Shown: in pieces, positions 1 to 15,457 of the stretch
How positions within the stretch are numbered: the stretch's first letter is position 1
Layout: each line of letters starts with the position of its first letter
Assembly: GCA_964228555.1 (NCBI GenBank)
Contig: CAXQZU010000040.1
Coordinates: 47,511 to 111,510, forward strand
DNA from: Planctomycetota bacterium
GTDB lineage: Bacteria; Planctomycetota; PLA2; JAEUHO01
Length of the DNA: 64,000 nt
Direction: 5' to 3'
Notes under the pieces: model-generated
Databases searched by the model: none
What the model was told of the DNA's origin: nothing
The model's input: only the letters and a program-made list of their open reading frames with translations
Made by a program: the position numbers and the translations under genes

Positions 1-1226
1 AGCGCCATGCGCAGTGCACGACGGCCTGAGGTGACGCTGCCCTCCAGCAGCAGCACGGCCCCAGCCCACGCCAGCACGAGGAAGCCCAGGCCCGTGCGCG
101 AGGGCCTCGGCACCACCGGCAGGCCGGGCGGCAGCGCCGGGTCGGGCGCGCTCGCGTCGAAGCACGTGCCCGCACGCTCCAGGCCCAGCGCGGGGCCCAC
201 GCGCCCGAGGGCGGCCGCCGCCGGCTCGCGTCCCTCGGGGCCTGCCGTGTCACGCACGTAGCCGTGGCCCAGTCCCCACTGGGCCCTGCCCCCCGCGTCC
301 ACGAGGCTTGCGCCCCGCAACGCCGCCTCCAGTCGCGGTGGCTGCGCCGCCGCATCTCGCACCAGCACGCCCCCGCCGCGTACCCACCCGGACAGGGCCT
401 CGGCATGCGACGCGGCCGCTTGCGTGTCGGGCCACGCGTCGGCGTGCACGCACGCGACGGCCACGCCCTGCAGGTCCAGTGCCTCGCGCGGTGCCACGGT
501 CGCGTGCAGCCACAGCGTCTCGAGCGCGTGCCCAAGGCCCGTCACGGCCGGCTCCAGCGTGATGCGCTCGACGGCCGGCCGCGCGGGACCGCCCAGCACC
601 AGCACCACCGGCCGGGCCACGGCCTCGCTGGGCTGCGTCACTGCGCGCCACAACCCGGGCCATGACTCGCCGGCGGCCACCAGCTGGCCCGCCACGAGGC
701 CCGGCACGGGCTCCGGCGGCGGCGGCCGGGACGGCTGCGTGTCGAGCAGCGGTGCTCGCAGGGGCTGCAGCGGCTCCGGCAGCAGCGGCAGGCCGCTGCG
801 GGCCAGCGCGAGCTCGGCCCCCCACGCCACGAGCACCACGGCGACCACGCCGCGCCGCACGCGCAGCGAGAGCCCGCCCAGCACCAGCGGGGCCAGCAGG
901 CACAGCCACCACGCCACGCCAGGCAGCACCACGCCCACCACGCCCTGCGCGCCGCCGCGGGCCAGCAGGCTGGCCGCCAGCAAGGCAGGTGCTGCCGCCA
1001 GCAGCAGCACGAGGCTGCGCAGCCACGGTGCGCGCCCCCGCTCGGCCGCGAGTCCCAGCGCGAGCACCAGCAGGCAGCAGCCCGGGATGGCCACCTGCAG
1101 GAAGCCCCGCGCGCTGCCGGGCAGCCACGGCACGGCCAGCAGGTCGAAGGCCGACAGGCCCAGCAGGGCCAGCACGACGGCCAGCACGCTGCCGGAGCGG
1201 TCGGGGCCCGGCGACGGCAGGCTCAC
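1..1226 (-). CDS. hypothetical multi-pass membrane protein with a possible class-I GATase-like soluble domain (3' end runs off the window)
   Basis: Not in the ORF track because it has no stop in the window. GTG at 1226 overlaps the ftsQ TGA (GTGA). Manual translation is open to base 1: several hydrophobic helices, then ...DLQGVAVACVHAD...EALSGWVRGGGVLV...WGLGHGYV, then another hydrophobic segment. Confidence 0.7.
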   Translation of the reverse strand, partial: MSLPSPGPDRSGSVLAVVLALLGLSAFDLLAVPWLPGSARGFLQVAIPGCCLLVLALGLAAERGRAPWLRSLVLLLAAAPALLAASLLARGGAQGVVGVVLPGVAWWLCLLAPLVLGGLSLRVRRGVVAVVLVAWGAELALARSGLPLLPEPLQPLRAPLLDTQPSRPPPPEPVPGLVAGQLVAAGESWPGLWRAVTQPSEAVARPVVLVLGGPARPAVERITLEPAVTGLGHALETLWLHATVAPREALDLQGVAVACVHADAWPDTQAAASHAEALSGWVRGGGVLVRDAAAQPPRLEAALRGASLVDAGGRAQWGLGHGYVRDTAGPEGREPAAAALGRVGPALGLERAGTCFDASAPDPALPPGLPVVPRPSRTGLGFLVLAWAGAVLLLEGSVTSGRRALRMA

Positions 1227-2158
1227 CGCGGCAGCACGGGCTCCGCGGGGAAGCGCACGTCCACGTGAGGCCGCGGGGGACCGGACTGGGCCTGCATCAG
1301 GCGCACCATCTTGCGCTCGTAGGTCTCTTCCTCCACCGAGCCGGCCAGGTCGCGTTCCGTGCGGCCCCAGTCCACGGTGGTGCCGTCGTTGAGCGTGAGC
1401 AGCACCTCGCCCATCGCGCGGTTGCCCGGCGAGGGGAAGCGCGACACGTCGATGCGGGCCACGTAGCGGCTGCGGCCCCACGCCATGTCGCGAGCCAGGC
1501 GGTCGGCCACGCGCGCGGCCTCCAGCCCCTCCGCCACCTGCTCCTTGAGGTTGTCCCACGGCACGCCGGGCACCGGCAGCGGGGCGCGGTCCACCCCGAC
1601 CAGCAAGGGCAGCGGCGCGCGGCGCTGGGCGAGGTAGCCGGCGTAGCAGCGCTCGTCGATGCGATGGCTGTCGGTGGACAGCAGCACGCAGAAGGGGCGG
1701 CCCTGCCGGTCGAGGAAGTGGGTCTGCACCCAGCACCCGGGCTCGCGCAGCACGACGCGCGCGCGCACCTTGTTGGGGAAGGCGATGCGCACGTCCTCCA
1801 CGCGCCGCACCAGCGGGTGGCGGGCCAGCACGCCTCGCGCACGCTCCTCGGCGGCCGGGTCGAACACCGACACGTCCAGCTGCAGCAGGGAGGCGTGGTG
1901 GAGCATGGCGGAGATGCGCGCATCGGCCCAGGAGGGCAGGCCCTCGAAGACGAACGAGGCGGCGCCCAGGCGGTTCTCGCGCACGGCATAGGCCTGTGCC
2001 CGGGCCTTGCCCAGCACGAGGCCGGCGCCCAGCAGCAGCACGGCCAGCAGGCCCACGCGCAGGGTGAGGCGGCCCCAGCGCGTCCCCAGCAGGACGTGGC
2101 GGCGCTTGGGGGCCTCCTCCGTCTCGGGCGGGTCGTCGGGGTCGGTCCTGCGGGCCAT
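1223..2158 (-). CDS. ftsQ: cell division protein FtsQ/DivIB-like
   Basis: Single N-terminal TM, POTRA-like segment (HPLVRRVEDVRIAFPNKVRARVVLREP), C-terminal VDVRF; usual position after murB. Confidence 0.75.
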   Translation of the reverse strand: MARRTDPDDPPETEEAPKRRHVLLGTRWGRLTLRVGLLAVLLLGAGLVLGKARAQAYAVRENRLGAASFVFEGLPSWADARISAMLHHASLLQLDVSVFDPAAEERARGVLARHPLVRRVEDVRIAFPNKVRARVVLREPGCWVQTHFLDRQGRPFCVLLSTDSHRIDERCYAGYLAQRRAPLPLLVGVDRAPLPVPGVPWDNLKEQVAEGLEAARVADRLARDMAWGRSRYVARIDVSRFPSPGNRAMGEVLLTLNDGTTVDWGRTERDLAGSVEEETYERKMVRLMQAQSGPPRPHVDVRFPAEPVLPR

Positions 2159-2342: not shown

Positions 2343-3251
2343 CTAGGCCGGCCCGGCAGGGGCGCCCCAGCAGCACACCTCTCGCTCCAGCGTGACGCCA
2401 TGCACGGCGCGCACGCGCGCCACCACCTCCGCGGCCAGCGCCTCGATGTCGGCGCTCGTGGCCGTGCCCGTGTTGATGAGGAAGTTGGCGTGCAGCACCG
2501 ACACCTGGGCACCGCCCACCTGCAACCCCTTGAGCCCCGCCGTGTCGATGAGCAGGCCCGCGGGACGCGCGCCCGTGGGGCCGTCGGGGTTCTTGAACAT
2601 GCAGCCGGCACTCGCGGCCGCCAGCGGCTGCGTGGACTGCTTCCACGTGCGCGCGCGCACCAGCAGGTCATGCTGTGCTGCGCGGTCCAGCGCGCGGTCG
2701 CGACGGAAGGTGGCGCCCGTGATCACGCAGCCCGCGAAGGGGCTGCGGCGGTAGCCGAAGTCCGCCGGGCCCACCCCGCGCCGGAAGGGCTCGCCCCGCG
2801 CGTCCACGCCCCGCACCTCCACCAGCGCCTCGCCCACCCAGCCGAAGCGACCGCCGGCGTTCATGAACACGACCCCGCCCACCTGGCCCGGGATGCCGGG
2901 GCAGCCGGGCAGCGCGGGGATCCCCAGCGCCACGCTCTGCCGCACGAGGTCGGGGAAGGGATGCCCGGCAGCGGCCTCCACGGCCTCCTCGCGCACCGCC
3001 ACGCCACGCAGGGCGCGCATCGAGAGCACGGCGCCCTCCACGCGGCCGTCGTGCACGAGCAGGTTGCAGCCCCCGCCAAGCACGCGCAGCGGCACGCCGC
3101 GCTCGCGGCAGGCACGCACCACCGCGGCCACCTCGTCCTCCGAGGCCGGCGTGAACAGGAAGTCCGGCGTGCCGCCCACGCCCAGCGAGGTCAGGCCGGC
3201 CAGCCGCGTGGCCGCTGCCCTGGCCTCATCGAAGCTGGGGCGCGAGGCCAC
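2343..3251 (-). CDS. murB: UDP-N-acetylenolpyruvoylglucosamine reductase
   Basis: LGGGCNLLV, GIPGQVGG..MNAG, FGYRRS, SAGCMFKNP, HANFLIN, LEREV motifs; GTG start at 3251 inferred. Confidence 0.95.
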   Translation of the reverse strand: MASRPSFDEARAAATRLAGLTSLGVGGTPDFLFTPASEDEVAAVVRACRERGVPLRVLGGGCNLLVHDGRVEGAVLSMRALRGVAVREEAVEAAAGHPFPDLVRQSVALGIPALPGCPGIPGQVGGVVFMNAGGRFGWVGEALVEVRGVDARGEPFRRGVGPADFGYRRSPFAGCVITGATFRRDRALDRAAQHDLLVRARTWKQSTQPLAAASAGCMFKNPDGPTGARPAGLLIDTAGLKGLQVGGAQVSVLHANFLINTGTATSADIEALAAEVVARVRAVHGVTLEREVCCWGAPAGPA

Positions 3252-4701
3252 CGTCGATCCCCTCGGCGATGCGCCGCGCCACGGCATCCACGTCTCCCGC
3301 GCCCATGGTCACCAGCACGTCGCCGGTGCGCACCTGCGCCAGCGCATGCGCGGCCAGGGCATCCAGGCCCGGCACCGTCGCGGCCTGCCCGCCCTCGCGG
3401 CGCACGGCAGCCGCGAGGTCCTCGGAGGTGACGCTGCGGCGCTCCTCCTCGCTGTCGCGCGCGAAGTAGATGGGCGGCAGCCACGCGGCGTCGGCCCCGG
3501 CCAGCGCACGCGCGAAGTCCTGCAGCAGGCAGCGCGTGCGGCTCGCCTGGTGGGGCTGGAACAGCACCACGATGCGCCGGCCGGCATGGCGGCTGCGCAG
3601 CGCCTGCAGCACGGCACGGATCTCCGCAGGGTGGTGGCCATAGTCGTCCAGCACGAGCACGCCACGGCGGTCGGCCACCTGCTCGAGGCGCCGGCCCACG
3701 CCCGCGAAGGCCGCCAGCCCGGCGCGCGCCTCCTCGAAGGACAGGCCCACGGCCTCCAGGGCCGCCAGCGCGGCCGTCGCGTTGAGCGCGTTGTGCATCC
3801 CCAGCAGCGGGATGCCCGCCTCGCCCCGGCGCTCGCCCGCGTGCCACACGTCGAAGGCGATGCCGGGCGCGTCGCGCCGGACCCGCACGTCGCGCACCGT
3901 CCACAGCGACTCGTCGCGCACGCCGTAGGTCTGCAGCCTGGCCTTGAGGCGTGGGTCGCGGCGGAACACGTCGGCGAAGTCCTCGTGCACCACCAACACC
4001 CCGTGGGCGGGCAGGCGCGCGGCGAAGACGCGGAAGGACTCCTCGATCTCGGCGAGGTCGCGGTAGTAGTCGAGGTGGTCCTCGTCGATGTTGGTGACGA
4101 TGGCCACCGTGGGCCGGTGCTGGTGGAACGAGCGGTCGAACTCGCAGGACTCGGCCACGAACGCCGGGCCGCGCCCCGCGTGGGCCCCGGTGCCGGTGGC
4201 CCCCACCACGCCCCCCACCACGAAGGAGGGATCGCGCCCGGCGTGCAGCAGCGCCGTGGCCACCAGCGACGAGGTCGTGGTCTTGCCATGGCAGCCGGCC
4301 ACGCAGATGGCCTGGTGCCCCTCCATCAGGGCTCCCAGCACCTGGGCGTAGGTGATCACCGGCACGCCGCGCGCGTGCGCCGCCGCGACCTGCGGGTGGG
4401 AGGGCGGCACGGCCGCCGAGCGCACGAGCAGGTCGAGGGCGGCAGGCAGGTCGCCGGGTGCATCACCCGGGGTGACCCGCACGCCCAGGGCGGCCAGCGC
4501 AGCACACCGCGCACCCGGCGCACGGTCGCTGCCGGCCACGGCGAGCCCGCGGGCCCGCAGCAGCCGCGCCGCACCGCTGGTGCCCGTGCCCTCCAGCCCC
4601 ACCAGGAACACGCTGCGCACCGCCGTCAGTGCGGGCACGAACGCACCCGGGACGCCAGCAGCCGAGGCCTGGGGCGTGGGGGCGGGCATCGTGGACCTCA
4701 T
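3226..4701 (-). CDS. murC: UDP-N-acetylmuramate--L-alanine ligase
   Basis: AGCHGKTTTSS, VAESCEFDRSF, TNIDEDHLDYY, DDYGHHPAEI, FQPH, TMGAGD. Confidence 0.95.
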   Translation of the reverse strand: MRSTMPAPTPQASAAGVPGAFVPALTAVRSVFLVGLEGTGTSGAARLLRARGLAVAGSDRAPGARCAALAALGVRVTPGDAPGDLPAALDLLVRSAAVPPSHPQVAAAHARGVPVITYAQVLGALMEGHQAICVAGCHGKTTTSSLVATALLHAGRDPSFVVGGVVGATGTGAHAGRGPAFVAESCEFDRSFHQHRPTVAIVTNIDEDHLDYYRDLAEIEESFRVFAARLPAHGVLVVHEDFADVFRRDPRLKARLQTYGVRDESLWTVRDVRVRRDAPGIAFDVWHAGERRGEAGIPLLGMHNALNATAALAALEAVGLSFEEARAGLAAFAGVGRRLEQVADRRGVLVLDDYGHHPAEIRAVLQALRSRHAGRRIVVLFQPHQASRTRCLLQDFARALAGADAAWLPPIYFARDSEEERRSVTSEDLAAAVRREGGQAATVPGLDALAAHALAQVRTGDVLVTMGAGDVDAVARRIAEGIDGGLAPQLR

Positions 4702-4808: not shown

Positions 4809-5927
4809 TCAGCCGCGGCGCAGTGCGAGCAGGTCGTCGGCGATGGTGCCCGCGGCGTCGGCTTGCACCTGCTGGACGGCCCTCCCCATCGCGGCCCGGC
4901 GCGGGGCGTCCAGCAGCAGGCCCAGCACCTGCTCGCGCACCGCCTGCGGGGTGAGCGACGCCTCCTCCAGCACCAGCGCACCGCCCCGGGCCGCCAGGCG
5001 CCCCGCGTTGAGGTGCTGCTGGCGGTCCACGTGGTGCGGGTAGGGCACCAGCACGCTGGGCACGCCCAGCGCCTCGATCTCGGCGCAGGTGAGCGCACCC
5101 GCCCGGCTCACCAGCAGGTCGGCGGTGCGGTAGGCCGTGCCCATGTCGTGGACGAAGGGCACCACCTGCGCCCGCACGCCGGCAGCCCGCCAGCCTTCCT
5201 CGATGCCCTCGCCCGCCCCGCCCACGGAGTGCAGCACCTGCAGGCGAGCCGCCAGCGCAGGGTCGGCCTCCACCGCCCCGGCCACGCCGCGCACCATGGC
5301 CTCGTTGAGCGCCCGGGCGCCGAGGCTGCCGCCCACCACCAGCAAGGTCAGGCGGCCCTCCTCGAGGCCCAGCCGGGCCGGGTCGCGCACGGCGGCGCGC
5401 AGGGCGGGCCGCACCACCGGGCCCGTCACCCGCACCCGGCCCGCGGGCAGTCGTCGCGCTGCCTCGGGGTGGGCCACGTAGCTGCGGCGGGCCAGCGGCG
5501 CCAGCGCCCGCACCACCACGCCCGGCACCAGGTCGGAGGCCAGCAACGCCAGCGGCGTGCCGCGGGCCAGCGCGGCCAGCGCGGCCGGCACGCAGGGCCA
5601 GCCGCCCAGCGCCAGCACCGCCGGCGGCCGCTCGCGGTGCAGCCGTCGCACGCCCTCGCCCACCGCACGCGCCATGCGCGGCACGAAGCGCAGCGCCTCC
5701 CCCAGCGTGCGCGGCCGGCGCGGCGCAGGCAGGTGCGCCACGGGCGGCGAGCCGGGCGGGAACCAGGCCGCCTCGCGCGCCTCGCCGGGCGTCACGAAGA
5801 CGGCCCCCTGCCCGCGCGCCTCCAGCGCGGAGGCGATGGCGAAGCCGGGTGCGAGGTGGCCCACGGTGCCGCCCCCCGCCAGCCAGGCGGCCCCGCGACG
5901 CCGGCGAGCGGGCCCGGCGGCGCTCAC
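4809..5927 (-). CDS. murG: undecaprenyl-PP-MurNAc-pentapeptide GlcNAc transferase
   Basis: GGGTVGHLAPG, GGSLGARALN, SRAGALTCAEI, QQHLNA; GTG start overlaps the ftsW TGA. Confidence 0.93.
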   Translation of the reverse strand: MSAAGPARRRRGAAWLAGGGTVGHLAPGFAIASALEARGQGAVFVTPGEAREAAWFPPGSPPVAHLPAPRRPRTLGEALRFVPRMARAVGEGVRRLHRERPPAVLALGGWPCVPAALAALARGTPLALLASDLVPGVVVRALAPLARRSYVAHPEAARRLPAGRVRVTGPVVRPALRAAVRDPARLGLEEGRLTLLVVGGSLGARALNEAMVRGVAGAVEADPALAARLQVLHSVGGAGEGIEEGWRAAGVRAQVVPFVHDMGTAYRTADLLVSRAGALTCAEIEALGVPSVLVPYPHHVDRQQHLNAGRLAARGGALVLEEASLTPQAVREQVLGLLLDAPRRAAMGRAVQQVQADAAGTIADDLLALRRG

Positions 5928-7093
5928 CCGAGGTCGGGGTCGGCCGCGGCCGAGGCGGCGCGGCGCGAGACGTTCACCAGCAAGCCCACGCAGGCCATCA
6001 TCAGCACGAGGTTGCTGCCCCCGACGCTGATGAAGGGCAGCGGGATGCCCTTGGTGGGCACGCTGTTGGTCACCACGGCCAGGTTCCACGCCGCCTGGAA
6101 GGCGATCACGAAGCCCGCGCCGCCCGCGAGGTAGACGGCCTGCGGCGACAGGGCGCGCGCGCCCAGCGTGATCTTGCGCGCATGCCAGGCGATGCCCATG
6201 AAGGCGGCGATGACCGCGGCGCAGCCCAGGAAGCCCAGTTCCTCGCCGATCACGGCCGCGATGAAGTCCGTGTTGCTCTCGGGCAGGTAGTAGAGCTTCT
6301 GCGTGCCCTCGCCCAGCCCGCGGCCCAGCAAGCCGCCGCTGCCGATGGCCAGCAAGGACTCCTTGACCTGCGTGCCGCCCGCGTCGGCGCCGCCCAGCCA
6401 CATGTCCACGCGCCGCTGCACGTGCGGGAACTTGAGCCACGCGACCACCAGCAGGATCGGGACGGCCGCCAGCATCGAGGGCCCCAGCCGCGAGGGCCTC
6501 ACGCCCGCGAGGGCCAGCAGCACGAGGCACTCGGCCACCAGGAACATGCTGGTGCCCAGGTCGGGCTGCACGAAGACCAGGCCCACGCCCAGCAGCACCG
6601 GAAGCAGCACGGGCAGGCTGGGCGCGGACGGGTCGAAGGAGGCCCGCCGCTCGCGCCTGGCCAGCGCATCCGAGAGGTAGAGCAGCAACGAGAGCTTGAG
6701 CAGCTCGCTGGGCTGGAAGCGCAGGCCCGCGAGGCTCACCCAGCGCCGGCTGCCGTTGACGCTCACGCCCATCACCATCGTCACGACCAGCAGCACGATC
6801 ACGGTCGTGAGCAGCGGCTTGCTCCAGCGCCCCAGCGTCTCCAGCGGCACGCGAGCCATGCAGGCACAGGCCAGCCCGGCCAGCAGGGCCCACGCCGCCT
6901 GCTTGAGCAGCACGCTGTTGGGATCGTGCCCCACGCCCGCCAGGCGGGCGCTGCTGCTGCTGTAGATCATCACGAGGCCCAGCGCCACCAGCGCCGCCGA
7001 CAGGCCCGCCACGCGCCGGCCGGCCGCCAGCAGGTCGCGCCCGGGCGGCACGCACGCCGTCTTCCCCAGCCAGCCCTGTGCCACGAATGCCAT
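5924..7093 (-). CDS. ftsW: SEDS peptidoglycan polymerase FtsW
   Basis: GLVMIYSSS, NGSRRW, FQPSELLK, QPDLGT, YLPESNTDFI..EELG, PTKGIPLPFISVGGS. Confidence 0.95.
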   Translation of the reverse strand: MAFVAQGWLGKTACVPPGRDLLAAGRRVAGLSAALVALGLVMIYSSSSARLAGVGHDPNSVLLKQAAWALLAGLACACMARVPLETLGRWSKPLLTTVIVLLVVTMVMGVSVNGSRRWVSLAGLRFQPSELLKLSLLLYLSDALARRERRASFDPSAPSLPVLLPVLLGVGLVFVQPDLGTSMFLVAECLVLLALAGVRPSRLGPSMLAAVPILLVVAWLKFPHVQRRVDMWLGGADAGGTQVKESLLAIGSGGLLGRGLGEGTQKLYYLPESNTDFIAAVIGEELGFLGCAAVIAAFMGIAWHARKITLGARALSPQAVYLAGGAGFVIAFQAAWNLAVVTNSVPTKGIPLPFISVGGSNLVLMMACVGLLVNVSRRAASAAADPDLG

Positions 7094-7097
7094 GGGA

Positions 7098-8453
7098 TCA
7101 CCTCAGCTTGAGCGTCGCCAGCGCAGCGACGACGAAGATGACGCTGACGATCCAGAAGCGGATCGTCACCTTGTTCTCGTGCAGGCCCAGGCGCTGGAAG
7201 TGGTGGTGCACCGGGGCGCACAGGAACCAGCGCTTGCCTTGGGGCGTGGGCTCGCCCCGGCGGGCGGCCGCGCGGCGCGTGAGCTTGAACCACGAGCGCT
7301 GCCAGATGACCGACAGCGCCTCGACGACGAAGATGCCGCCGGCCACCAGCAGCGTGAGCTCGTGGCGCAGGGCCACGGCCAGCACGCCCAGGAACCCGCC
7401 GATGGAGAGCGAGCCCGTGTCGCCCATGAACACCGAGGCCGGGTAGGCGTTGAACCACAGGAAGCCCAGCGAGCCCCCCACCAGCGCGGCGGCGAGGATG
7501 GCCAGCTCGGCTCCCTCCGGCACGTGGAACAGGTAGAGCTCGCGCGCCAGCACGGCGCTGCCCACCACGTAGCCCACCACCACGAAGGCGGTCGCCACCG
7601 TGGCCGTCACGCCGATGGCCAGGCCGTCGAGGCCATCGGTGAGGTTGACCGCATTGCTGGCGCCCACGATGACGAGGATGCCCAGCGGGATGAACAGCAG
7701 GCCCAGGTCCAGGCAGAAGCGCTTCGAGAAGGGCACCTGCAGGTCGGCACGGTGGTAGGTGCCCGCCGGCGCCGGCAGGCGCACCGTGCGGCCCTCGGTC
7801 AGCGGCTCGGGCCGGCCGGCCGCGTCCAGCCGGCCGTTCATCGACGCCAGCTCGCGGCCCCGGGCGGCATCACCCATCCAGCGCGCGGCCAGCGTGTCCC
7901 AGGTGTCGCCCCGCGCCGCCCGCGCCACCGGGTAGGGATCGGGCTGCCAGGAAGGCCCGCGCAGCCACGCGCGGCCCTCCTGCGCACACCCCACGGCGTA
8001 GAGCGCGGTGATGGCCGCGCCGCTGATCAGCAGCTGTCCCACCAGCTTCTGGCGCTCGCTCATGCCCTCGCCCTTGCGGTGCGTGAGCTTCTTCCAGTCG
8101 TCCATCGCGCCCAGCGCGCCGAACAGCAGGAAGGACACGATCACGATCCAGGTCTGCGGCAGGTCCAGCCGCATGAAGAGCAGGCCCGAGAGGGCCACGC
8201 CCACCAGCAGGATGACGCCGCCCATCGTGGGCACCGACTCCTTGGCCTTGCGCTCGGCGTCCACGTGCTCGCTGCCGGTGGGGCTGAAGCCCGCCAGCTT
8301 GCGCTTGCGCAAGGACTCGACGATGCCCGGGCCCACGATGGTGGCCACGAGGAAGGCCAGCACGGCCGCGAAGGCCGCCCGGAAGGTGGCGTACTCGATG
8401 ATGCGCAACGCGCTCACCGAGTCCTTGAACTGGACCAGCAGGTGGTAGATCAC
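7098..8453 (-). CDS. mraY: phospho-N-acetylmuramoyl-pentapeptide transferase with an inserted LysM-like domain
   Basis: PTMGG, DDWKK, NAVNLTDGLDGL, FMGDTGS, APVHHHF. GTG start at 8453 follows GAGGAGG. About 80 extra residues lie after TM4. Confidence 0.95.
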   Translation of the reverse strand: MIYHLLVQFKDSVSALRIIEYATFRAAFAAVLAFLVATIVGPGIVESLRKRKLAGFSPTGSEHVDAERKAKESVPTMGGVILLVGVALSGLLFMRLDLPQTWIVIVSFLLFGALGAMDDWKKLTHRKGEGMSERQKLVGQLLISGAAITALYAVGCAQEGRAWLRGPSWQPDPYPVARAARGDTWDTLAARWMGDAARGRELASMNGRLDAAGRPEPLTEGRTVRLPAPAGTYHRADLQVPFSKRFCLDLGLLFIPLGILVIVGASNAVNLTDGLDGLAIGVTATVATAFVVVGYVVGSAVLARELYLFHVPEGAELAILAAALVGGSLGFLWFNAYPASVFMGDTGSLSIGGFLGVLAVALRHELTLLVAGGIFVVEALSVIWQRSWFKLTRRAAARRGEPTPQGKRWFLCAPVHHHFQRLGLHENKVTIRFWIVSVIFVVAALATLKLR

Positions 8454-8504
8454 GGGCGCCAGCCCTCCTCGCACGCCCTCGCAGGGGCGGCCCTGGACAT
8501 GGGA

Positions 8505-9932
8505 CTAGCCGGGCCGCGAGCCGAGCCGACGCGGCGCCGGCGCGGCGCCGGCGTCCTCGCTGGCGAGGTGCTTGCGCACCGCCTCCAGCACGCGCTCGAG
8601 GGCCATGCCCCGCGAGCCCTTGAAGAGCCAGGTGTCGCCGGCCTGCGCCTCGAAGGCGAGCTCGGCCAGCGCGTCGGCGGTGCTGGCATGGTGGCGCACG
8701 TGCTCGGCGGGCATGCCGGCCCGCACGGCCTCCTCGGCCACCAGCGCGGCGCTGGGCCCGATGGCCCAGAGCAGGTCCACCCGCGCGTGGGCCACCTTGC
8801 GGCCCAGCGAGCGGTGGTGGCGCTCCGACTCCGTGCCCAGCTCCAGCATCTCGCCCAGCACGGCCACGCGACGCCCGCCCGTGCCGCGCTGGCCCAGCTC
8901 GTTGAGGGCGGCCTCCATCGCGCGCGGGTTGGCGTTGTAGGCGTCGTTGACGAGCGTCACGCCCCCCACCACCTCGCGCGCCATGCGCATGGGCGGCGGC
9001 TGCACGCGGGCCAGCGCGTCGCGCACGGCCAGCGGCGACTGCCCCAGCCACAGGCCGGTGGCCACCGCAGCCAGCGCGTTGGCCACGTTGTAGAGCCCCA
9101 GCACCGGCACCTCGAACAGCATCTTCCCGTACAGCCAGAAGGCGATGCCCGTCTCCGTGGCGTGCACGTCCAGCCCGTAGATGTCGCTGTCCTCCCAGGT
9201 GCCGTAGGTCAGCAGGTGGCAGTCCACGCGCTCCATCATCTCGCGGCACCAGTAGTTGTCGGCGTTGATGATGGCCGCGCCGTCGTGCGGCAGGGCGCGC
9301 ACCAGCGCGCTCTTCTCCTCCATCACGCCGCGCACGCTGCCCAAGCCCTCGAGGTGCACCTCCTCCACGCAGGTGACGATGCCCACCGTGGGCCGCGCGA
9401 TGGAGGCGAGGTGGGCGATCTCGCCCGGCGCGTTGGTGCCGATCTCCACCACGCACGCCCGCGTGTGGCGGTCCATCTGCAGCAAGGTGAGCGGCACGCC
9501 GATGTCGTTGTTGTAGGACGCCGGGCTGGCGACCACGTCGCGGCCCAGCACGCTGCGCACCATCTCCTTGGTCGTGGTCTTGCCGCACGAGCCGGTGATG
9601 CCCACCACCGGCACGCTGAAGCGGCTGCGGTGCCAGCGGGCCAGGTCGCCCAGCGCCTTCGTGGTGTCGGGCACCACGATGGCGTGGGCCGGCAGGCGCG
9701 CCAGCCCCGCGTCACGCGCCACCAGCGCGAAGCCGGCGCCGTTGAGGAAGGCCTGCTCGAGGAACTCGTGACCGTCGCGGCTCTTGCCACGCAGCGGCAC
9801 GAACAGCGCGCCCGCAGGCACGTTGCGCCCGTCGATGGTCACTGCCGGGACGAGCGGGTCGCCCACCACGCCGTCGCCGGCGGGGACGCCGCCGGTGGCA
9901 CGCAGGATGTCGGAGTAGCGGATGGGTTCCAT
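8505..9932 (-). CDS. murF: UDP-MurNAc-tripeptide--D-Ala-D-Ala ligase
   Basis: ITGSCGKTTTKEM, SYNNDIGVPLT, NDAYNANP, GEMLELG, KGSRG. Confidence 0.95.
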   Translation of the reverse strand: MEPIRYSDILRATGGVPAGDGVVGDPLVPAVTIDGRNVPAGALFVPLRGKSRDGHEFLEQAFLNGAGFALVARDAGLARLPAHAIVVPDTTKALGDLARWHRSRFSVPVVGITGSCGKTTTKEMVRSVLGRDVVASPASYNNDIGVPLTLLQMDRHTRACVVEIGTNAPGEIAHLASIARPTVGIVTCVEEVHLEGLGSVRGVMEEKSALVRALPHDGAAIINADNYWCREMMERVDCHLLTYGTWEDSDIYGLDVHATETGIAFWLYGKMLFEVPVLGLYNVANALAAVATGLWLGQSPLAVRDALARVQPPPMRMAREVVGGVTLVNDAYNANPRAMEAALNELGQRGTGGRRVAVLGEMLELGTESERHHRSLGRKVAHARVDLLWAIGPSAALVAEEAVRAGMPAEHVRHHASTADALAELAFEAQAGDTWLFKGSRGMALERVLEAVRKHLASEDAGAAPAPRRLGSRPG

Positions 9933-9947: not shown

Positions 9948-11465
9948 CTAGGCCGTCCGTGCGCCCACTGCACCCGCGCCGCCAGCCCTGGCGGCGCGCA
10001 GGCGCAGGGCCTCGCGGACCTCGGTCACGTCGTCGAAGGGGAGCTTGGTGCTCCCCACGATCTGGTAGTCCTCGTGGCCCTTGCCGGCCACGAGCACGCT
10101 GGCACCGTCCGGCGCCTCGAGCACGGCGCGGCGGATGGCCTCGCGCCGGTCCGGCACCACGAGGGCGCGGGCTTGCTGGGTCGCGTCGAGGCCGGCCAGC
10201 ATCTCGGCCAGGATGGCCTGCGGGTCCTCGGTGCGCGGGTTGTCGCTGGTGAAGACGACGCGGTCCGCCTGCTCGCAGGCCACGCGGGCCATGCGCGGGC
10301 GCTTGGTCCGGTCGCGGTCGCCGCCGCACCCCACCACGCAGGCGAGCGGACGCGCGCCCACGTCGCGCAGGAAGCCCAGCACCTGGCGCAGTGACTCCTC
10401 GGTGTGCGCGTAGTCCACGAACACGTGCAGGCCAGCCCCGTCCACGCGCTCGAGGCGGCCGCGCACGCCCTGCAGCGCGCTGGCCCCGGCGGCCGCGCGC
10501 AGGGGATCGACGCCCAGCGCCATCGCCGCCCCCACCGCGGCCAGCAGGTTGAGCACGTTGTGGCGCCCCACCAGCGAGGTGTGCACCGGCTGCTCGCGAC
10601 CGCCCACGCACAGGCGGAAGCGGCTGGAGGCCGCCGACAGCTCCAGGCCCTCGAAGCGCAGGTCGGCCCCTGCCGCGGCACCGTAGGTGAGCACGCGCGC
10701 GCGGCAGCCAGAGGCCATCGCAGCAGAGGCCGCATCGTCGCGGTTGAGCACCGCGGTGGCTCCGCTGCCCAGGCCCCGGAACAGCAGGGCCTTGGCGTCA
10801 CGGTAGGCGTCGAGCGTCTTGTGGTAGTCGAGGTGGTCGCTGGCCAGGTTGGTGAACACGCCGGCCCGGAAGTCGAGCCCGGCCGTGCGCCCCTGGTGCA
10901 GGGCATGGCTGGACACCTCCATCACGGCGCTGTCGCATCCGTGCGCCCGCGCGCGCGCCAGGAGGCGGCGCAGCTCGAGCACGCCCGGCGTGGTGTTGCT
11001 GGCGGGCTCGGGGCGGCCGTCGCCCAGGTCGTAGGCGATGGTCCCGATCACGGCCGGGCGGCGGCCGGCGGCGCGCAACGCGGCAGCCACCAGCATGCTG
11101 GTCGTGGTCTTGCCCTTGGTGCCCGTGATGCCCACGAGGTCCATGCCGGCCTGCGGCGTGCCGTGCCAGGCATCGGCGGCCACCCGCAAGGCGGTGGCGG
11201 CCTCGGCCACGCGCAGCACGGGCAGGCCGGGCAGGGCATCCTGCGCCACCACGAGCACCGCACCGCGCGCCACGGCGTCGCGGGCATAGGCCACGCCATC
11301 CTCGCGGCTGCCGGCGCGCGCGAGGAACACGTCGCCTCGGCCCGCCTGGCGCGAGTCGTCGCACAGGCCCGACAGCGCCGTGGCGGGCGCCACGCCCTCC
11401 AGCGAGCCGCCCAGCAGGCGCGCGAGGTCGGCGGCGGTGGCCGGACGGGAGGCGGGCGCGCTCAC
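9948..11465 (-). CDS. murE: UDP-MurNAc-dipeptide--meso-DAP ligase
   Basis: GITGTKGKTTT, MEVSSHAL, DHLDYH, VDYAHT, DNPR (the meso-DAP-specific motif), AGKGHEDYQ; GTG start overlaps the ftsI stop. Confidence 0.95.
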   Translation of the reverse strand: MSAPASRPATAADLARLLGGSLEGVAPATALSGLCDDSRQAGRGDVFLARAGSREDGVAYARDAVARGAVLVVAQDALPGLPVLRVAEAATALRVAADAWHGTPQAGMDLVGITGTKGKTTTSMLVAAALRAAGRRPAVIGTIAYDLGDGRPEPASNTTPGVLELRRLLARARAHGCDSAVMEVSSHALHQGRTAGLDFRAGVFTNLASDHLDYHKTLDAYRDAKALLFRGLGSGATAVLNRDDAASAAMASGCRARVLTYGAAAGADLRFEGLELSAASSRFRLCVGGREQPVHTSLVGRHNVLNLLAAVGAAMALGVDPLRAAAGASALQGVRGRLERVDGAGLHVFVDYAHTEESLRQVLGFLRDVGARPLACVVGCGGDRDRTKRPRMARVACEQADRVVFTSDNPRTEDPQAILAEMLAGLDATQQARALVVPDRREAIRRAVLEAPDGASVLVAGKGHEDYQIVGSTKLPFDDVTEVREALRLRAARAGGAGAVGARTA

Positions 11466-13285
11466 GGGCGGCCCTCCGCAGCCACGGCCTCGCCCCGGTC
11501 CGGCGCCACGCCCAGGTAGGGCAGGCTGCGGTCCAGGATCTTGCGCACGGCCGGCGCCGACACGCGGCCGCCGCTGCCTTGCTGGCTGCGGCGCGTCACC
11601 GCGCTCACCAGCACCACCAGCCTCGGCGCATTCGCCGGGGCGTAGCCCACGAACGAGCACACGTGCTGCGTCTCGGCGTGGATCACCGCCGTGCCCGTCT
11701 TGCCCGCGGCGCTGAAGGGCGAGCCCTTGAAGGCGCTGGCCGCGGTGCCCGTCTCCACGCAGCCCACGAGGCCCTGCCGCACCATGCCCAGCAGGTGCGG
11801 CGGGCAGATGGGCTCGCCCGGCGTCACGGGCGAGACGGTGTCCAGCATGAGGGTCGGGCGCGCCGCGCGGGCATCGGCGCGCGCGAAGGCCGTGAAGGCC
11901 GAGGCGAGGCGGATCGGCGTCATCGTCAGCGCATGACCGAAGCCGCTGCGCAGGAAGTCCGAGCGGCCGCGCATGCGGTGCGCCTTGCCCCAGCACACCT
12001 CGTGCGGCAGCTCGAGCCCGGTGGGCTGGTCCAGCCCCAGCCACGTGAACATGCCCTGCAGCGCGGGCCCGCCCATCCAGTCCGCCAGCCAGGCGGCGCC
12101 GGTGTTGCTCGACTCCGACAGCAGGCGTGCGAGGTCGCCATCGCCCACGAAGTGCGTGTCGCTGATGGCCTTGCGGTCGCCGGGAAAGTGCACGCTCAAC
12201 GGCATCGGGACCACCGTGCTGGGCGGCAGGCCCTGGCGCAGCGCCCAGGCCACCGTGAAGGGCTTGAACACGCTGCCCGGCTCGTAGAGGCCTCGGATGG
12301 GCAGGTTGGAAGAGGGCACGCGCGCGCCCGTGGACGGGTCGCAGGCCCGGCTGGCCATGGCGAGGACCTGGCCCGTGCCCGGGTCCAGCACCACCGCGCA
12401 GGCCTGGAACGGCTTCCACGCCGCCACCAGCGCATCCATCTCGCGCTCCACGTGGTGCTGCAGCACCACGTCCAGCGTCAGGCGTACGTCGCGCCCCGCC
12501 AGCAGGTCGCGGTCGAAGAGCGGCTCGTCGGCCAGCATGCGCGCCTTGCCGTCGCGGCTGACCGTCACGCTCAGCTGCCCGGGATAGAGGTGCCGGTCCA
12601 GCAGGCCCTCCACGCCCTCGCCCTGCCCGGCCTGGCCGCCTTGCGGGACGGGCACGCCGATCACGTGCATGGCGTAGTCGCCGTTGGGGTAGGCGCGCCG
12701 CTCGACCACGCGCACCTTGAGCGGGCGCATGTCGCGCTGGTCCGCCGCGTCGTCGAGGCCCGCCACCACGCGCGGCTCGCTCACGTAGGGCACGAGCACG
12801 AGGTGGCGTACCCCCGTGCGCATCCATCGCAGGCCCAGCGGGCCGGCCAGCACGCGGCGCTCGCCCCGGGCCTGCTCCAGGCGGCGCTGGAGCACGCCGG
12901 CCGTCAGGCGGTCGTCGTCCAGCGTGGCGGCCAGCTGGGCGCAGAAGGCGGGCAGGCGGTCCTCGGGCAGCACCTGCGGGTCAGGATCCACCGCCACCTC
13001 GCGGCCGAAGGCGCTGGTGGCCAGCAGCCTGCCGTGGCGGTCGAGGATGCGGCCGCGCACGCCGGCCAGCGTCATGCGCGCGGCATGGCGCCGGTTGGCC
13101 TGCTCGCGCATGGAGGGTCCCCGCACCAGCTGGAACCACGCGAAGCGCATCATCATGGCAGCCAGCAGCAGGAGCAGGATGCCGAAGAGGGTGTTCGTGC
13201 GCCACACGCGCACCACCTCGATCGTGCGGCGGGCCTCCCCGACGGGGATGGCGCGGGGCGGGGCGAGGGCGGGACGGCTCCTCAT
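11462..13285 (-). CDS. ftsI: class B penicillin-binding protein (FtsI/PBP3-like)
   Basis: N-terminal TM, RGRILDRHG, SVFK (SxxK), SSN (SxN), KTGTA; ATG overlaps the ftsL stop. Confidence 0.93.
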   Translation of the reverse strand: MRSRPALAPPRAIPVGEARRTIEVVRVWRTNTLFGILLLLLAAMMMRFAWFQLVRGPSMREQANRRHAARMTLAGVRGRILDRHGRLLATSAFGREVAVDPDPQVLPEDRLPAFCAQLAATLDDDRLTAGVLQRRLEQARGERRVLAGPLGLRWMRTGVRHLVLVPYVSEPRVVAGLDDAADQRDMRPLKVRVVERRAYPNGDYAMHVIGVPVPQGGQAGQGEGVEGLLDRHLYPGQLSVTVSRDGKARMLADEPLFDRDLLAGRDVRLTLDVVLQHHVEREMDALVAAWKPFQACAVVLDPGTGQVLAMASRACDPSTGARVPSSNLPIRGLYEPGSVFKPFTVAWALRQGLPPSTVVPMPLSVHFPGDRKAISDTHFVGDGDLARLLSESSNTGAAWLADWMGGPALQGMFTWLGLDQPTGLELPHEVCWGKAHRMRGRSDFLRSGFGHALTMTPIRLASAFTAFARADARAARPTLMLDTVSPVTPGEPICPPHLLGMVRQGLVGCVETGTAASAFKGSPFSAAGKTGTAVIHAETQHVCSFVGYAPANAPRLVVLVSAVTRRSQQGSGGRVSAPAVRKILDRSLPYLGVAPDRGEAVAAEGRP

Positions 13286-13551
13286 CGGCGCCCCCGCGCG
13301 GCCGGCGTCTCGCGCGGCGTCGTGGCGACGGGCGCCCCACCCTCCAGCTCCGTGAGCAGGCTGCGCGGCGAGGCCAGCGCCGACACCTCGGCCTGCGCGT
13401 CCAGCGTGCGGCGCTCGAGCAGCTGCAGCCGGCGCTCCATGCGCGGGATGTCGTACTGCAAGCGCCGCGACTCGCTCTGCTCCTTGATGCCGGCGAGAGC
13501 GGTGGCCACCACCGCCAGCGCCACTGCGATCGTCGTCGCCCAACGCGTCAT
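13282..13551 (-). CDS. ftsL: FtsL-like small membrane coiled-coil protein
   Basis: MTRWATTIAVALAVVATALAGI TM, a heptad region, then LASP; sits between rsmH and ftsI with ATGA overlaps on both sides. Confidence 0.7.
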   Translation of the reverse strand: MTRWATTIAVALAVVATALAGIKEQSESRRLQYDIPRMERRLQLLERRTLDAQAEVSALASPRSLLTELEGGAPVATTPRETPAARGRR

Positions 13552-14543
13552 GCCTGCGTCCCGCTCCCTTCGTCCTGCGTCCCGTGCCCTGCGTCCCGGC
13601 CCGCACCCTGGCCCCCACCGACCGTCCCGCCGCCCACCGACCTCTCGAAGACGCGCAACCGCGCGGGCCGTGCCCGCGGGTTGTGCTGCTCCTCCTGCTC
13701 GCTCGACCGGATGGGCTTGCGCGTCACCACCACGCCCTGTCCCGTGCGCTGCGCACCACGGAACGCCTCCTTCACCGCGCGCTCCTCGCCGCTGTGGAAG
13801 CAGATCACCAGCAGCCGCCCGCCCGGGGCCAGCGCCGCCAGCGCCGCGGCCAGGCCCCGCGCCAGGTGCCCCGGCTCGTCGTTCACCCACATGCGCAACG
13901 CCTGGAACGAGCGTGTGGCCGGGTCGATGCGCCCGCGGCGCAGCGCGCTGCCGCGGATGGCCGCGGCCAGCTGCTCCACGCTGCGGAAGGGGCGCCCACG
14001 GACCAGCGCACGCGCCACGGCGCGGGCCCGCACCTCGCCGCCGTACTCGAAGAGCACGCGTGCGAGGTCCTCCTCGCGCGCATGGTTGACGAGGTCGGCC
14101 GCGGTGGATCCCTCCTCCGTGGCATCGAAGCGCATGTCCGGGGCGGCCGCGCCGCCGCGGAACGAGAAGCCTCGCTCCGCCCTGTCCAGCTGCAGCGAGG
14201 AGACACCGAGGTCGAGCAGCACGGCCCGGGGCGCCGGCCAGCCGGCAGCGGCAAGCGCCTCGGCCAGCGTGGCATAGGAGCCGTGCACCAGCCGTGCGCG
14301 CGCGCCGAAGCGCGCGAGCCGCTGCCCCGCCAGCGCCAGCGCCTGCGGGTCACGGTCCATGCCCAGCAGCCGCGCGTGCGGGAAGGCCTCGAGGATGGCC
14401 TCGGCATGGCCGCCGAGGCCCACGGTGCCATCCACCACGACAGCGCCCGGTTGTTCCAAGCCCTGCGCGTCGAGGTGCGCGAGCACCTCGGCGAGCAAGA
14501 CCGGTCGATGGAGATGGGAAAGATCGTCAGCGGCCGGGCACAT
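13548..14543 (-). CDS. rsmH: 16S rRNA m4C1402 methyltransferase
   Basis: HRPVLLAE, DGTVGLGGH, DLGVSSLQLD..RGFSF, ATRSFQALRM.VN.E, NPRAR. Confidence 0.95.
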   Translation of the reverse strand: MCPAADDLSHLHRPVLLAEVLAHLDAQGLEQPGAVVVDGTVGLGGHAEAILEAFPHARLLGMDRDPQALALAGQRLARFGARARLVHGSYATLAEALAAAGWPAPRAVLLDLGVSSLQLDRAERGFSFRGGAAAPDMRFDATEEGSTAADLVNHAREEDLARVLFEYGGEVRARAVARALVRGRPFRSVEQLAAAIRGSALRRGRIDPATRSFQALRMWVNDEPGHLARGLAAALAALAPGGRLLVICFHSGEERAVKEAFRGAQRTGQGVVVTRKPIRSSEQEEQHNPRARPARLRVFERSVGGGTVGGGQGAGRDAGHGTQDEGSGTQA

Positions 14544-14549
14544 GCCGGC

Positions 14550-14987
14550 CTAGCCCGCGGGGTCGGCATCGGTCGGCTCGCCGACCGGGTCGCCATCGCC
14601 CACGTGCTTCTCCCAGCGCTCTGGGTCCCAGAGCTCCAGGTAGGTGTTCAGGCCCGCCACGCGAACGACGCGCGTGGGGAAGAAGGTCGCGATGAAACGC
14701 TTGGGCAGCGTGATGCGGCCCGGGCCCTTGAGCTCGACTTCCTCGGCGCGCTCGAAGAAGCGGCGCTTGCGCGTGGGATCGCCCTCGAAGCGGTTGGGCA
14801 CCTGCTCGCGCGCCATCTCCGCGTACACGCTGGCGGGATAGGCCTCGATGCACAGCTTGTCCTCGGTGGGCACGAGGTAGAGGCGGCCCTCGCTGTGCTT
14901 CTGGATCGCCTCGGCGAACGCAGCGGGGATCACCACACGGTCCTTGCCGTCGAGGCGGTGATCGCGATGACCGGTGAAGGGACGCAT
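14550..14987 (-). CDS. mraZ: division/cell-wall cluster transcriptional regulator MraZ
   Basis: FTG..HRLDGKDRVVIPA and GRITLP repeats, YLELW; first gene of the dcw cluster. Confidence 0.9.
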   Translation of the reverse strand: MRPFTGHRDHRLDGKDRVVIPAAFAEAIQKHSEGRLYLVPTEDKLCIEAYPASVYAEMAREQVPNRFEGDPTRKRRFFERAEEVELKGPGRITLPKRFIATFFPTRVVRVAGLNTYLELWDPERWEKHVGDGDPVGEPTDADPAG

Positions 14988-15014
14988 GGGCCGTGTCGGC
15001 GCTCCGATGCCCCG

Positions 15015-15060
15015 ACTTTACACTCCATGACACCCCTTGCCAATAGCGAAATCTTGTCTG
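15015..15060 (-). promoter_or_regulatory. putative dcw promoter / MraZ-box region
   Basis: Locally AT-rich. On the minus strand GGGGTG and GGAGTG occur at 10-bp spacing upstream of mraZ, loosely like MraZ boxes. Confidence 0.3.
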
Positions 15061-15353
15061 ACACGGCGCACGCAAGATACTCGCCAGCAAGGCTTTGCGT
15101 TGTTCGCATGATGTTCGCTTTTGCGGCGTGACACCCGGTGCCCCTCGGCAGCGCCGGGGTCGGAGCGACCGAAACACCCGCCTGATGGGCTGGAAGGGCG
15201 CTGGTGACCGATCTGGCCCCCTGGAGCCGGCCACCCGCACCGCGTGGCCGCAGGACGGGCCCGGTACCGGCGCCAGCCTGCGCGACCCGGCGCCTCGTCC
15301 GCGGGGTCGGCCTTTGGCCCGCAGGCGGCCGCTGGGGCCGTAGCATCGCGCGT

Positions 15354-15457
15354 GGACGGTCACGCCCCGGTGGGTCGGTGCTGTCGAACCGGGTCAGGTC
15401 CGGAAGGAAGCATCCCTACGACTCCCCACCGATGTCTTCGGGTCTACGTGACCGTCC
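15354..15457 (+). ncRNA. ffs: signal recognition particle (4.5S) RNA
   Basis: Domain IV GGTCAGGTCCGGAAGGAAGCA; terminal stem GGACGGTCACG/CGTGACCGTCC; TAGCAT -10-like hexamer at 15341. Confidence 0.93.

Follow-up and report, generated by a model that had tools for sequence, protein, structure and literature searches.

MraY with a predicted periplasmic LysM-clan insert in one family of FtsZ-less Planctomycetota

The mraY gene and the anatomy of its product

The stretch of DNA considered here, called the window below, comprises 64,000 nucleotides of contig CAXQZU010000040.1 from a Planctomycetota bacterium; it has a GC content of 68-78% and carries on its minus strand a dcw-type cluster of cell wall genes that includes mraY (7098..8474, minus). 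The MraY protein encoded there holds one divergent LysM-clan domain of about 50 residues, spliced into the loop between the fourth and fifth transmembrane (TM) helices just ahead of a conserved hairpin. On the basis of profile and topology comparisons, this anatomy, namely LysM homology and a periplasmic position, is proposed with high confidence.

The mraY open reading frame (ORF) encodes 458 amino acids (aa), and an alternative in-frame GTG start at 8453 would give a product of 451 aa with the N-terminus MIYHLL, in agreement with the N-terminus of the relative P0002 (99% identical) and of most other relatives. The window protein scores 296.4 bits against TIGR00445, the equivalog model of mraY in the PNPT superfamily, whose curated cut-off is 192.05. 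In a profile search of the whole genome (2.75 Mb, 93.7% complete), both mraY halves jointly reached 296.6 bits on the same model and a single copy was returned, ruling out an additional canonical mraY elsewhere in the genome. The catalytic motifs are intact, and the roles of their residues have been described (PMC4790310). They include the pair D125-D126 (8097..8102, minus), which sits in loop B where TM3 ends on the cytoplasmic side, the NAVNLTDGLDG motif of residues 274-284 (7623..7655, minus) at the cytoplasmic end of TM5, with N274, D280-G281 and D283-G284, and the HHH motif of residues 423-425 (7200..7208, minus). D125-D126, D280/D283 and H423-H425 are invariant across two alignments of relatives (A1 and A2).

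The catalytic core aligns throughout with canonical MraY (Aquifex aeolicus 4J72; Escherichia coli, Enterocloster) at E 5.4e-78, and the DD, NxxDGxDG and HHH motifs, the layout of ten TM helices, the periplasmic hairpin and the position in the dcw cluster are common to both. By these features the window protein is the only MraY of its genome and a catalytically complete one; lipid I synthase activity is predicted for it, the sole mraY being accompanied by murB, murC, murD, murE, murF, murG, ftsW and ftsI. Unlike canonical MraY, solved representatives of which are 360-376 aa long, it has about 78 additional residues with the LysM domain and a further 12 residues in loop E.

In the alignment with Aquifex MraY (4j72_A, 365 aa), residues 8-153 correspond to 7-148 and residues 245-458 to 164-365, and residues 154-244 occupy the place of 15 residues of the Aquifex protein. 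The TIGR00445 match is split between model positions 118 and 119 by 234 nucleotides, or 78 codons. The span from Q147 to D256 measures 110 aa here vs 35-81 aa in the MraYs of 80 loci from other phyla, which were picked by generic MraY motifs; the length of the TM4-TM5 loop is variable in general, and the window protein has the longest among the 81 compared. An initial annotation of this DNA had described an MraY of about 450 aa with intact motifs and an insert between TM4 and the hairpin, all of which the alignment confirms. The range that it gave for the insert (7745..7990) is approximately right, corresponding to residues 162-243, but lies one base out of frame, and the peptide that it quoted (YPVARAARGD...RTVRLP) is residues 181-234 (7773..7934, minus).

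From its N-terminal side, the region begins with TM4 (residues 144-164; 7983..8045, minus), which runs from cytoplasm to periplasm according to hydropathy and the 4j72 alignment. The N-terminal linker (residues 165-183; 7926..7982, minus) bears the order-wide motif RGPxxxPxPY, in which R172 and P180 are invariant. It leads into the divergent LysM domain (residues 184-234; 7773..7925, minus), with GDTW at 189-192 and A196, R205, A210, N213, G228 and P234 as further signature positions. The C-terminal linker (residues 235-244; 7743..7772, minus) terminates in a conserved HRAD and is followed by the conserved periplasmic hairpin LQVPFSKRFCLDLG (residues 245-258; 7701..7742, minus), placed by the alignments and named as such in PMC4790310. 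The linkers flanking the LysM domain measure about 19-22 and 10 residues.

The initial annotation had also placed this loop in the periplasm, which is supported by the 4j72 alignment, hydropathy, published topology and motif positions. Hydropathy shows four hydrophobic segments ahead of the loop (28-55, 79-106, 105-127 and 144-164), while residues 162-244 are hydrophilic, with a mean Kyte-Doolittle hydropathy of -0.80 and no TM-like window; the 4j72 alignment places the insert after TM4. Both the alignment with 4j72_A and hydropathy agree with ten helices and a hairpin between TM4 and TM5. In Aquifex MraY, both termini are periplasmic, ten TM helices and a periplasmic beta-hairpin are present, and the cytoplasmic portions of TM3, 4, 5, 8 and 9b make up the active-site cleft (PMC4790310, PMC5039524). 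Along the chain, a single helix separates the insert from the DD pair on its N-terminal side and another from the NxxDGxDG motif on its C-terminal side; since both motifs are cytoplasmic, the insert is expected to face the periplasm.

The second insert comprises 12 Arg-rich residues (400-411), RRAAARRGEPTP, in cytoplasmic loop E before the HHH motif (7242..7277, minus). It was found in every LysM-bearing relative and in P0070, a relative described below, and is missing in sister-type MraYs (404-417 aa) and in Aquifex MraY.

Homology of the insert to LysM domains

A Pfam scan of the window protein gave only Glycos_transf_4 and a weak match to Phage_tail_X on residues 185-206 (E 0.1), which improved to E 0.0086 on the isolated insert; Phage_tail_X is a member of the LysM clan. 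The window copy stays below the gathering score of the Pfam LysM family. Family profiles gave a clearer picture. The profile A3, built from the inserts of 35 relatives, was compared with all PDB sequences, and its top matches were 4uz2_A (E 1.9e-8) and 4xcm_A (E 3.4e-7), which are LysM domains of the Thermus P60 endopeptidase and align to A3 positions 7-62, that is, over the whole domain. Further matches included the LysM-named chains 9gtp_P, 6q40_A, 7aeb_M, 9g8s_T and 2l9y_A, and the names among the PDB matches were LysM, Kbp, Tail protein X, Ecp6, CEBiP, SafA and CVNH-LysM. A second profile, A4, was assembled from 20 canonical LysM domains that had been found independently in family and sister-family genomes, all of them above the PF01476 cut-off. 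Between A3 and A4, hhalign returned a probability of 98.6% and E 1.3e-15 over 49 columns, covering template positions 2-50 of 50.

Whole-domain profile homology to LysM was therefore obtained from both the PDB search and hhalign, in support of the initial annotation, which had read the insert as fitting the LysM pattern. Because the family profiles match LysM while Pfam misses the window copy, the core of the insert is, as judged from these comparisons, truly a LysM-clan domain, though a divergent one, with the window copy falling below the threshold of the Pfam family.

The signature residues of LysM are widely retained among the 96 full-length relatives that carry the insert: G189 in 86, E/D190 in 93, T/S191 in 82, W/L/F/Y192 in 95, A196 in 92, R205 in 89, A210 in 89, N213 in 93, G228 in 86 and P234 in 90. 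Such counts indicate that the positions of the LysM fold signature are kept by purifying selection. The insert is like wall-active LysM domains (PF01476; Thermus P60, 4UZ2/4UZ3) in its full-domain profile homology and in the succession G-D/E-T/S-aromatic/Leu, A, N and G...P. Unlike them, it occurs singly and is embedded in a loop of a polytopic membrane enzyme, instead of being a repeat at the end of a secreted or anchored protein.

The insert also departs from canonical LysM in a longer alpha2-beta2 loop and in Trp for Leu. The stretch from N213, the Asn of helix 2, to the final Pro at 234 is 22 residues long in 51 of the 96 relatives and 33-44 in 36 of them, vs 17-18 residues in the canonical LysM domains compared. 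At position 192, Trp stands instead of the canonical Leu in 69/96, and at position 191 Asp is found rather than Thr/Ser in 12/96. Relatives of 470-484 aa (e.g., P0017, P0050 and P0067) have an extra 15-22 residues within the alpha2-beta2 loop, which hold a conserved Cys-containing motif (..GSDLCDPDTPEA..).

The sole canonical LysM protein that Pfam finds in the genome is a protein of 293 aa on another contig (C31; L105:1219-2100, minus). It combines a hydrophobic anchor at its N-terminus with a linker rich in Pro and Ala and with two LysM-like repeats, the second of which bears SDTW, resembling the GDTW of MraY.

Distribution, FtsZ and the surrounding cluster

The insert is present in close relatives. 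It is carried by 96 of 121 sequences (query included), these being 450-484 aa long, and by 5 further fragments beyond these full-length ones; the many insert-bearing relatives exclude a frameshift or an assembly artefact as its origin, the latter having been the concern of the initial annotation. An MraY-type match was defined as a match to A3 beginning at model position 1 with E<1e-10. The window's own genome gave such a match, as did 23 of the 24 other genomes searched from its GTDB family; the only family genome without one (G013) is 85% complete. In an even sample of 401 genomes from the phylum, the match was present in 16/16 genomes of the family vs 0/384 genomes from 102 other families (E<=1e-10). 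Three MraYs of the sister family keep the flanking motifs RGPxxxSPY/W and DHRTDLQVPF, with only 22-29 unrelated residues between them, which suggests that the LysM domain was spliced into an already extended and partly conserved loop. As far as this distribution indicates, the insert goes back to a single gain within one family-level lineage of Planctomycetota that lack FtsZ.

The only name given to these proteins in all sources is MraY. Among 1.84 billion representatives at 50% identity, the clade comes down to one clean sequence (P0058) and two frameshift-ridden ones (P0134 and P0146), and the remaining top matches are split at the insert or are fragments. P0134, P0146 and also P0100 appear frameshifted inside or past the insert. 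With 83% identity to the LysM-bearing P0020 and P0030, P0070 (405 aa) is a close relative; the domain is missing from it in frame, and the family insert in loop E is retained. P0070 comes from a single contig, and either a natural loss or an artefact of that contig may be involved.

Extended loops are found in other MraYs as well. At least 10 of the 150 best MraY representatives (P0157, P0159, P0165, P0173, P0249, P0208, P0179, P0233, P0235 and P0274) are 484-543 aa long, with the same loop between TM4 and TM5 extended by 100-170 residues, but their sequences are unrelated to the insert and none is LysM. Five of them share a helical-looking insert of about 130 aa that matches no Pfam family, the insert of P0208 has a sub-threshold match to FlgD_ig (24 bits vs 27), and the remaining inserts, which are rich in charged residues or in Pro, match no Pfam family either. 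In P0257, it is the TM2-TM3 loop that holds an insert, a Cys-rich one. By this comparison, the TM4-TM5 loop looks like a recurrent insertion or accessory-domain docking site in MraY.

The initial annotation suggested that lipid I synthesis may be tethered to existing peptidoglycan, possibly positioning wall synthesis in an organism without ftsZ in its dcw cluster; on this reading, LysM would anchor MraY to the sacculus and compensate for the lack of FtsZ. LysM homology and a periplasmic location do hold, LysM domains of wall hydrolases bind peptidoglycan (PMC4356369), and FtsZ was not found in the window's genome (93.7% complete). FtsZ is, however, missing throughout the phylum sample, being above the family cut-off in 0/401 genomes (weaker tubulin/FtsZ-like matches occurred in 24/401, none from the LysM family), and a 2025 review states that ftsZ was lost in all planctomycetes (PMC12673574). 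The insert is confined to one family and so does not correlate with FtsZ loss, which can at most have been the background to its origin. MreB is present in the own genome and in 22/24 family members, a further point against compensation. The linkers should confer a reach of only a few nanometres, so that contact with the mature wall appears doubtful; in diderms, the sacculus lies roughly 10 nm from the inner membrane, beyond that reach. The absence of the domain from P0070 speaks against an anchor too. Anchoring to the mature sacculus is accordingly considered the less likely option, and an improbable one.

Two wall genes were considered as tracking the insert and rejected. MreB occurs in the LysM family and the sister family (9/11 genomes) alike. 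Class A penicillin-binding proteins (PBPs) with a GT51 glycosyltransferase were found in only 11/24 family members and in 0/16 sister-family and other genomes searched, and none was found in the window's own genome. An organism without GT51 would rely solely on SEDS polymerases.

Within the cluster, mraY lies directly downstream of murF (8505..9932, minus) and directly upstream of ftsW (5924..7093, minus), which encodes a SEDS polymerase. The other members, all on the minus strand, are rsmH (13548-14543), a gene for an ftsI-like class B PBP (11462-13618), murE (within 9948-12827; 488 bits on NF001126, the model of the meso-diaminopimelate type), murG (4809-5906), murC (3226-4701) and murB (2343-3287). 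murD is absent from the cluster, with none between mraY and ftsW, and was found on another contig (C3:40569-41897; 342 bits, above cut-off). Three flanking ORFs (250..1128, 1223..2158 and 14527..15363, minus) have no Pfam or NCBIfam match. They sit where ddl and ftsQ/ftsA (downstream of murB) and ftsL/mraZ (beside rsmH) are common, and in such GC-rich DNA not all of them may be genes.

Glycan binding, alternative roles and significance

LysM domains are known to bind glycans containing N-acetylglucosamine (GlcNAc) and to cooperate between molecules on long chains; most of the contacts come from main-chain atoms in the GDTL region and in the alpha2-beta2 loop (PMC4356369). The reading favoured here, with modest confidence, is that the insert serves as a periplasmic accessory module which would bind the GlcNAc-containing glycan of peptidoglycan; glycan binding of any kind by the insert is likewise judged somewhat probable, on grounds of homology. 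MraY is a dimer (PMC4790310, PMC10914600), and each enzyme would then display two LysM modules side by side. Since the linkers are short and the loop joins TM4 and TM5, which form part of the active site, membrane-proximal binding is favoured over binding to the mature wall, and the ligand may be nascent strands of neighbouring SEDS polymerases or the head groups of lipid II. That such binding holds MraY at sites of ongoing wall synthesis is put forward only tentatively.

Several observations weigh against this glycan-binding reading. PF01476 gives no match on the window protein or on its insert even at E<=10. Scanned singly, 25/96 full-length relatives match it at E<=1 (best 2e-4) and 71/96 do not, and Phage_tail_X matches 5/96. 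In a six-frame search with PF01476, the MraY insert was matched in 0/9 family genomes, in which other LysM proteins were found. The LysM core evolves faster than the remaining MraY, mean identity to the window protein being 0.39 in the former vs 0.71 in the latter. The lengthened alpha2-beta2 loop corresponds to what is one wall of the sugar groove in the LysM domain of Thermus P60, P60_tth (PMC4356369). The Val of beta1, kept in 84/96 relatives, is Ala186 in the window copy, and its equivalent in P60_tth contacts an N-acetyl group (PMC4356369). Finally, the lack of the domain in frame in P0070 suggests, unless it is an artefact, that the domain is dispensable for the core enzyme.

Given this divergence and the variable loop, a serious rival is that the fold, though derived from LysM, has lost glycan binding and acts as a structural cap or as a docking surface for a periplasmic or membrane partner, for example the SEDS/class B PBP pair encoded adjacently; it is regarded as possible, though not probable. 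Some LysM-fold proteins serve roles other than glycan binding, and the PDB matches of A3 include Kbp and Tail protein X. The Pfam model misses most copies, the alpha2-beta2 loop is not only lengthened but highly variable, Trp commonly replaces Leu at 192 and Asp sometimes stands at 191, and the unrelated inserts at the same site elsewhere may mean that the site tolerates or needs bulk. Nevertheless, the conserved positions of the insert are those of glycan-binding LysM, including the GDT/GES turn and N213. In the complex of P60_tth with chitohexaose (PMC4356369), the sugar is contacted by the corresponding Val, by the GDTL(Y/F) turn and by the alpha2-beta2 loop; most of these contacts involve the main chain, so that side-chain drift is of little information. 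These contact positions map onto partly conserved positions and a lengthened loop in the insert, and because the sugar contacts are mostly main-chain, sequence by itself does not decide whether glycan binding has been retained.

Another alternative is an allosteric role, in which the domain would read flipped lipid II or accumulating, uncross-linked nascent glycan and inform the active site by way of TM4 and TM5; the ligand would shift these helices and throttle or boost lipid I synthesis, as a domain-level form of a feedback that has been proposed for MraY. In Pseudomonas aeruginosa and E. coli, a periplasmic regulatory site of MraY that probably binds flipped lipid II is on record, the changes in hyperactive variants lie on the extracytoplasmic face, and at the dimer interface a density compatible with the head group of lipid II extends into the periplasm (PMC10914600). 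The insert would share with this feedback an extracytoplasmic input and a peptidoglycan disaccharide head group as the thing recognized. Its linkers are short, and it sits on the loop joining TM4 and TM5, both of which contribute to the active-site cleft (PMC5039524). The feedback site, however, is a dimer interface of the core enzyme with no added domain; a relation of the insert to it, like a position of the loop near it, is conjectural, and further experiments are called for by the authors of the feedback model themselves (PMC10914600). LysM domains, moreover, prefer oligomers over a single disaccharide. That binding tunes MraY activity is considered unlikely. If it did, the unrelated inserts at this loop in other MraYs could be alternative regulatory heads.

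An MraY with a periplasmic LysM insert is apparently undescribed. No fusion of MraY and LysM was found, as judged by titles and abstracts, with subscription journals, supplements and domain-architecture databases lying outside the search. Literature pairing MraY with LysM mostly concerns the phage M lysis protein; in PMC4815162, the two terms refer to separate proteins, and the word LysM is absent from two reviews of Planctomycetota.

MraY, which is essential and a target of drugs, catalyses the first membrane step of wall synthesis and is usually described as a bare ten-helix enzyme. If the favoured reading, a glycan-binding accessory module, is true, the protein described here would be the first MraY with a built-in receptor for the product side of its pathway. 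The insert offers a concrete test of whether precursor supply is coupled to events outside the membrane, a question raised by the 2024 feedback model. How members of this phylum grow and divide without FtsZ is, moreover, not understood. In addition, the unrelated inserts in the same loop suggest that a wider, unstudied class of MraY accessory domains may exist.

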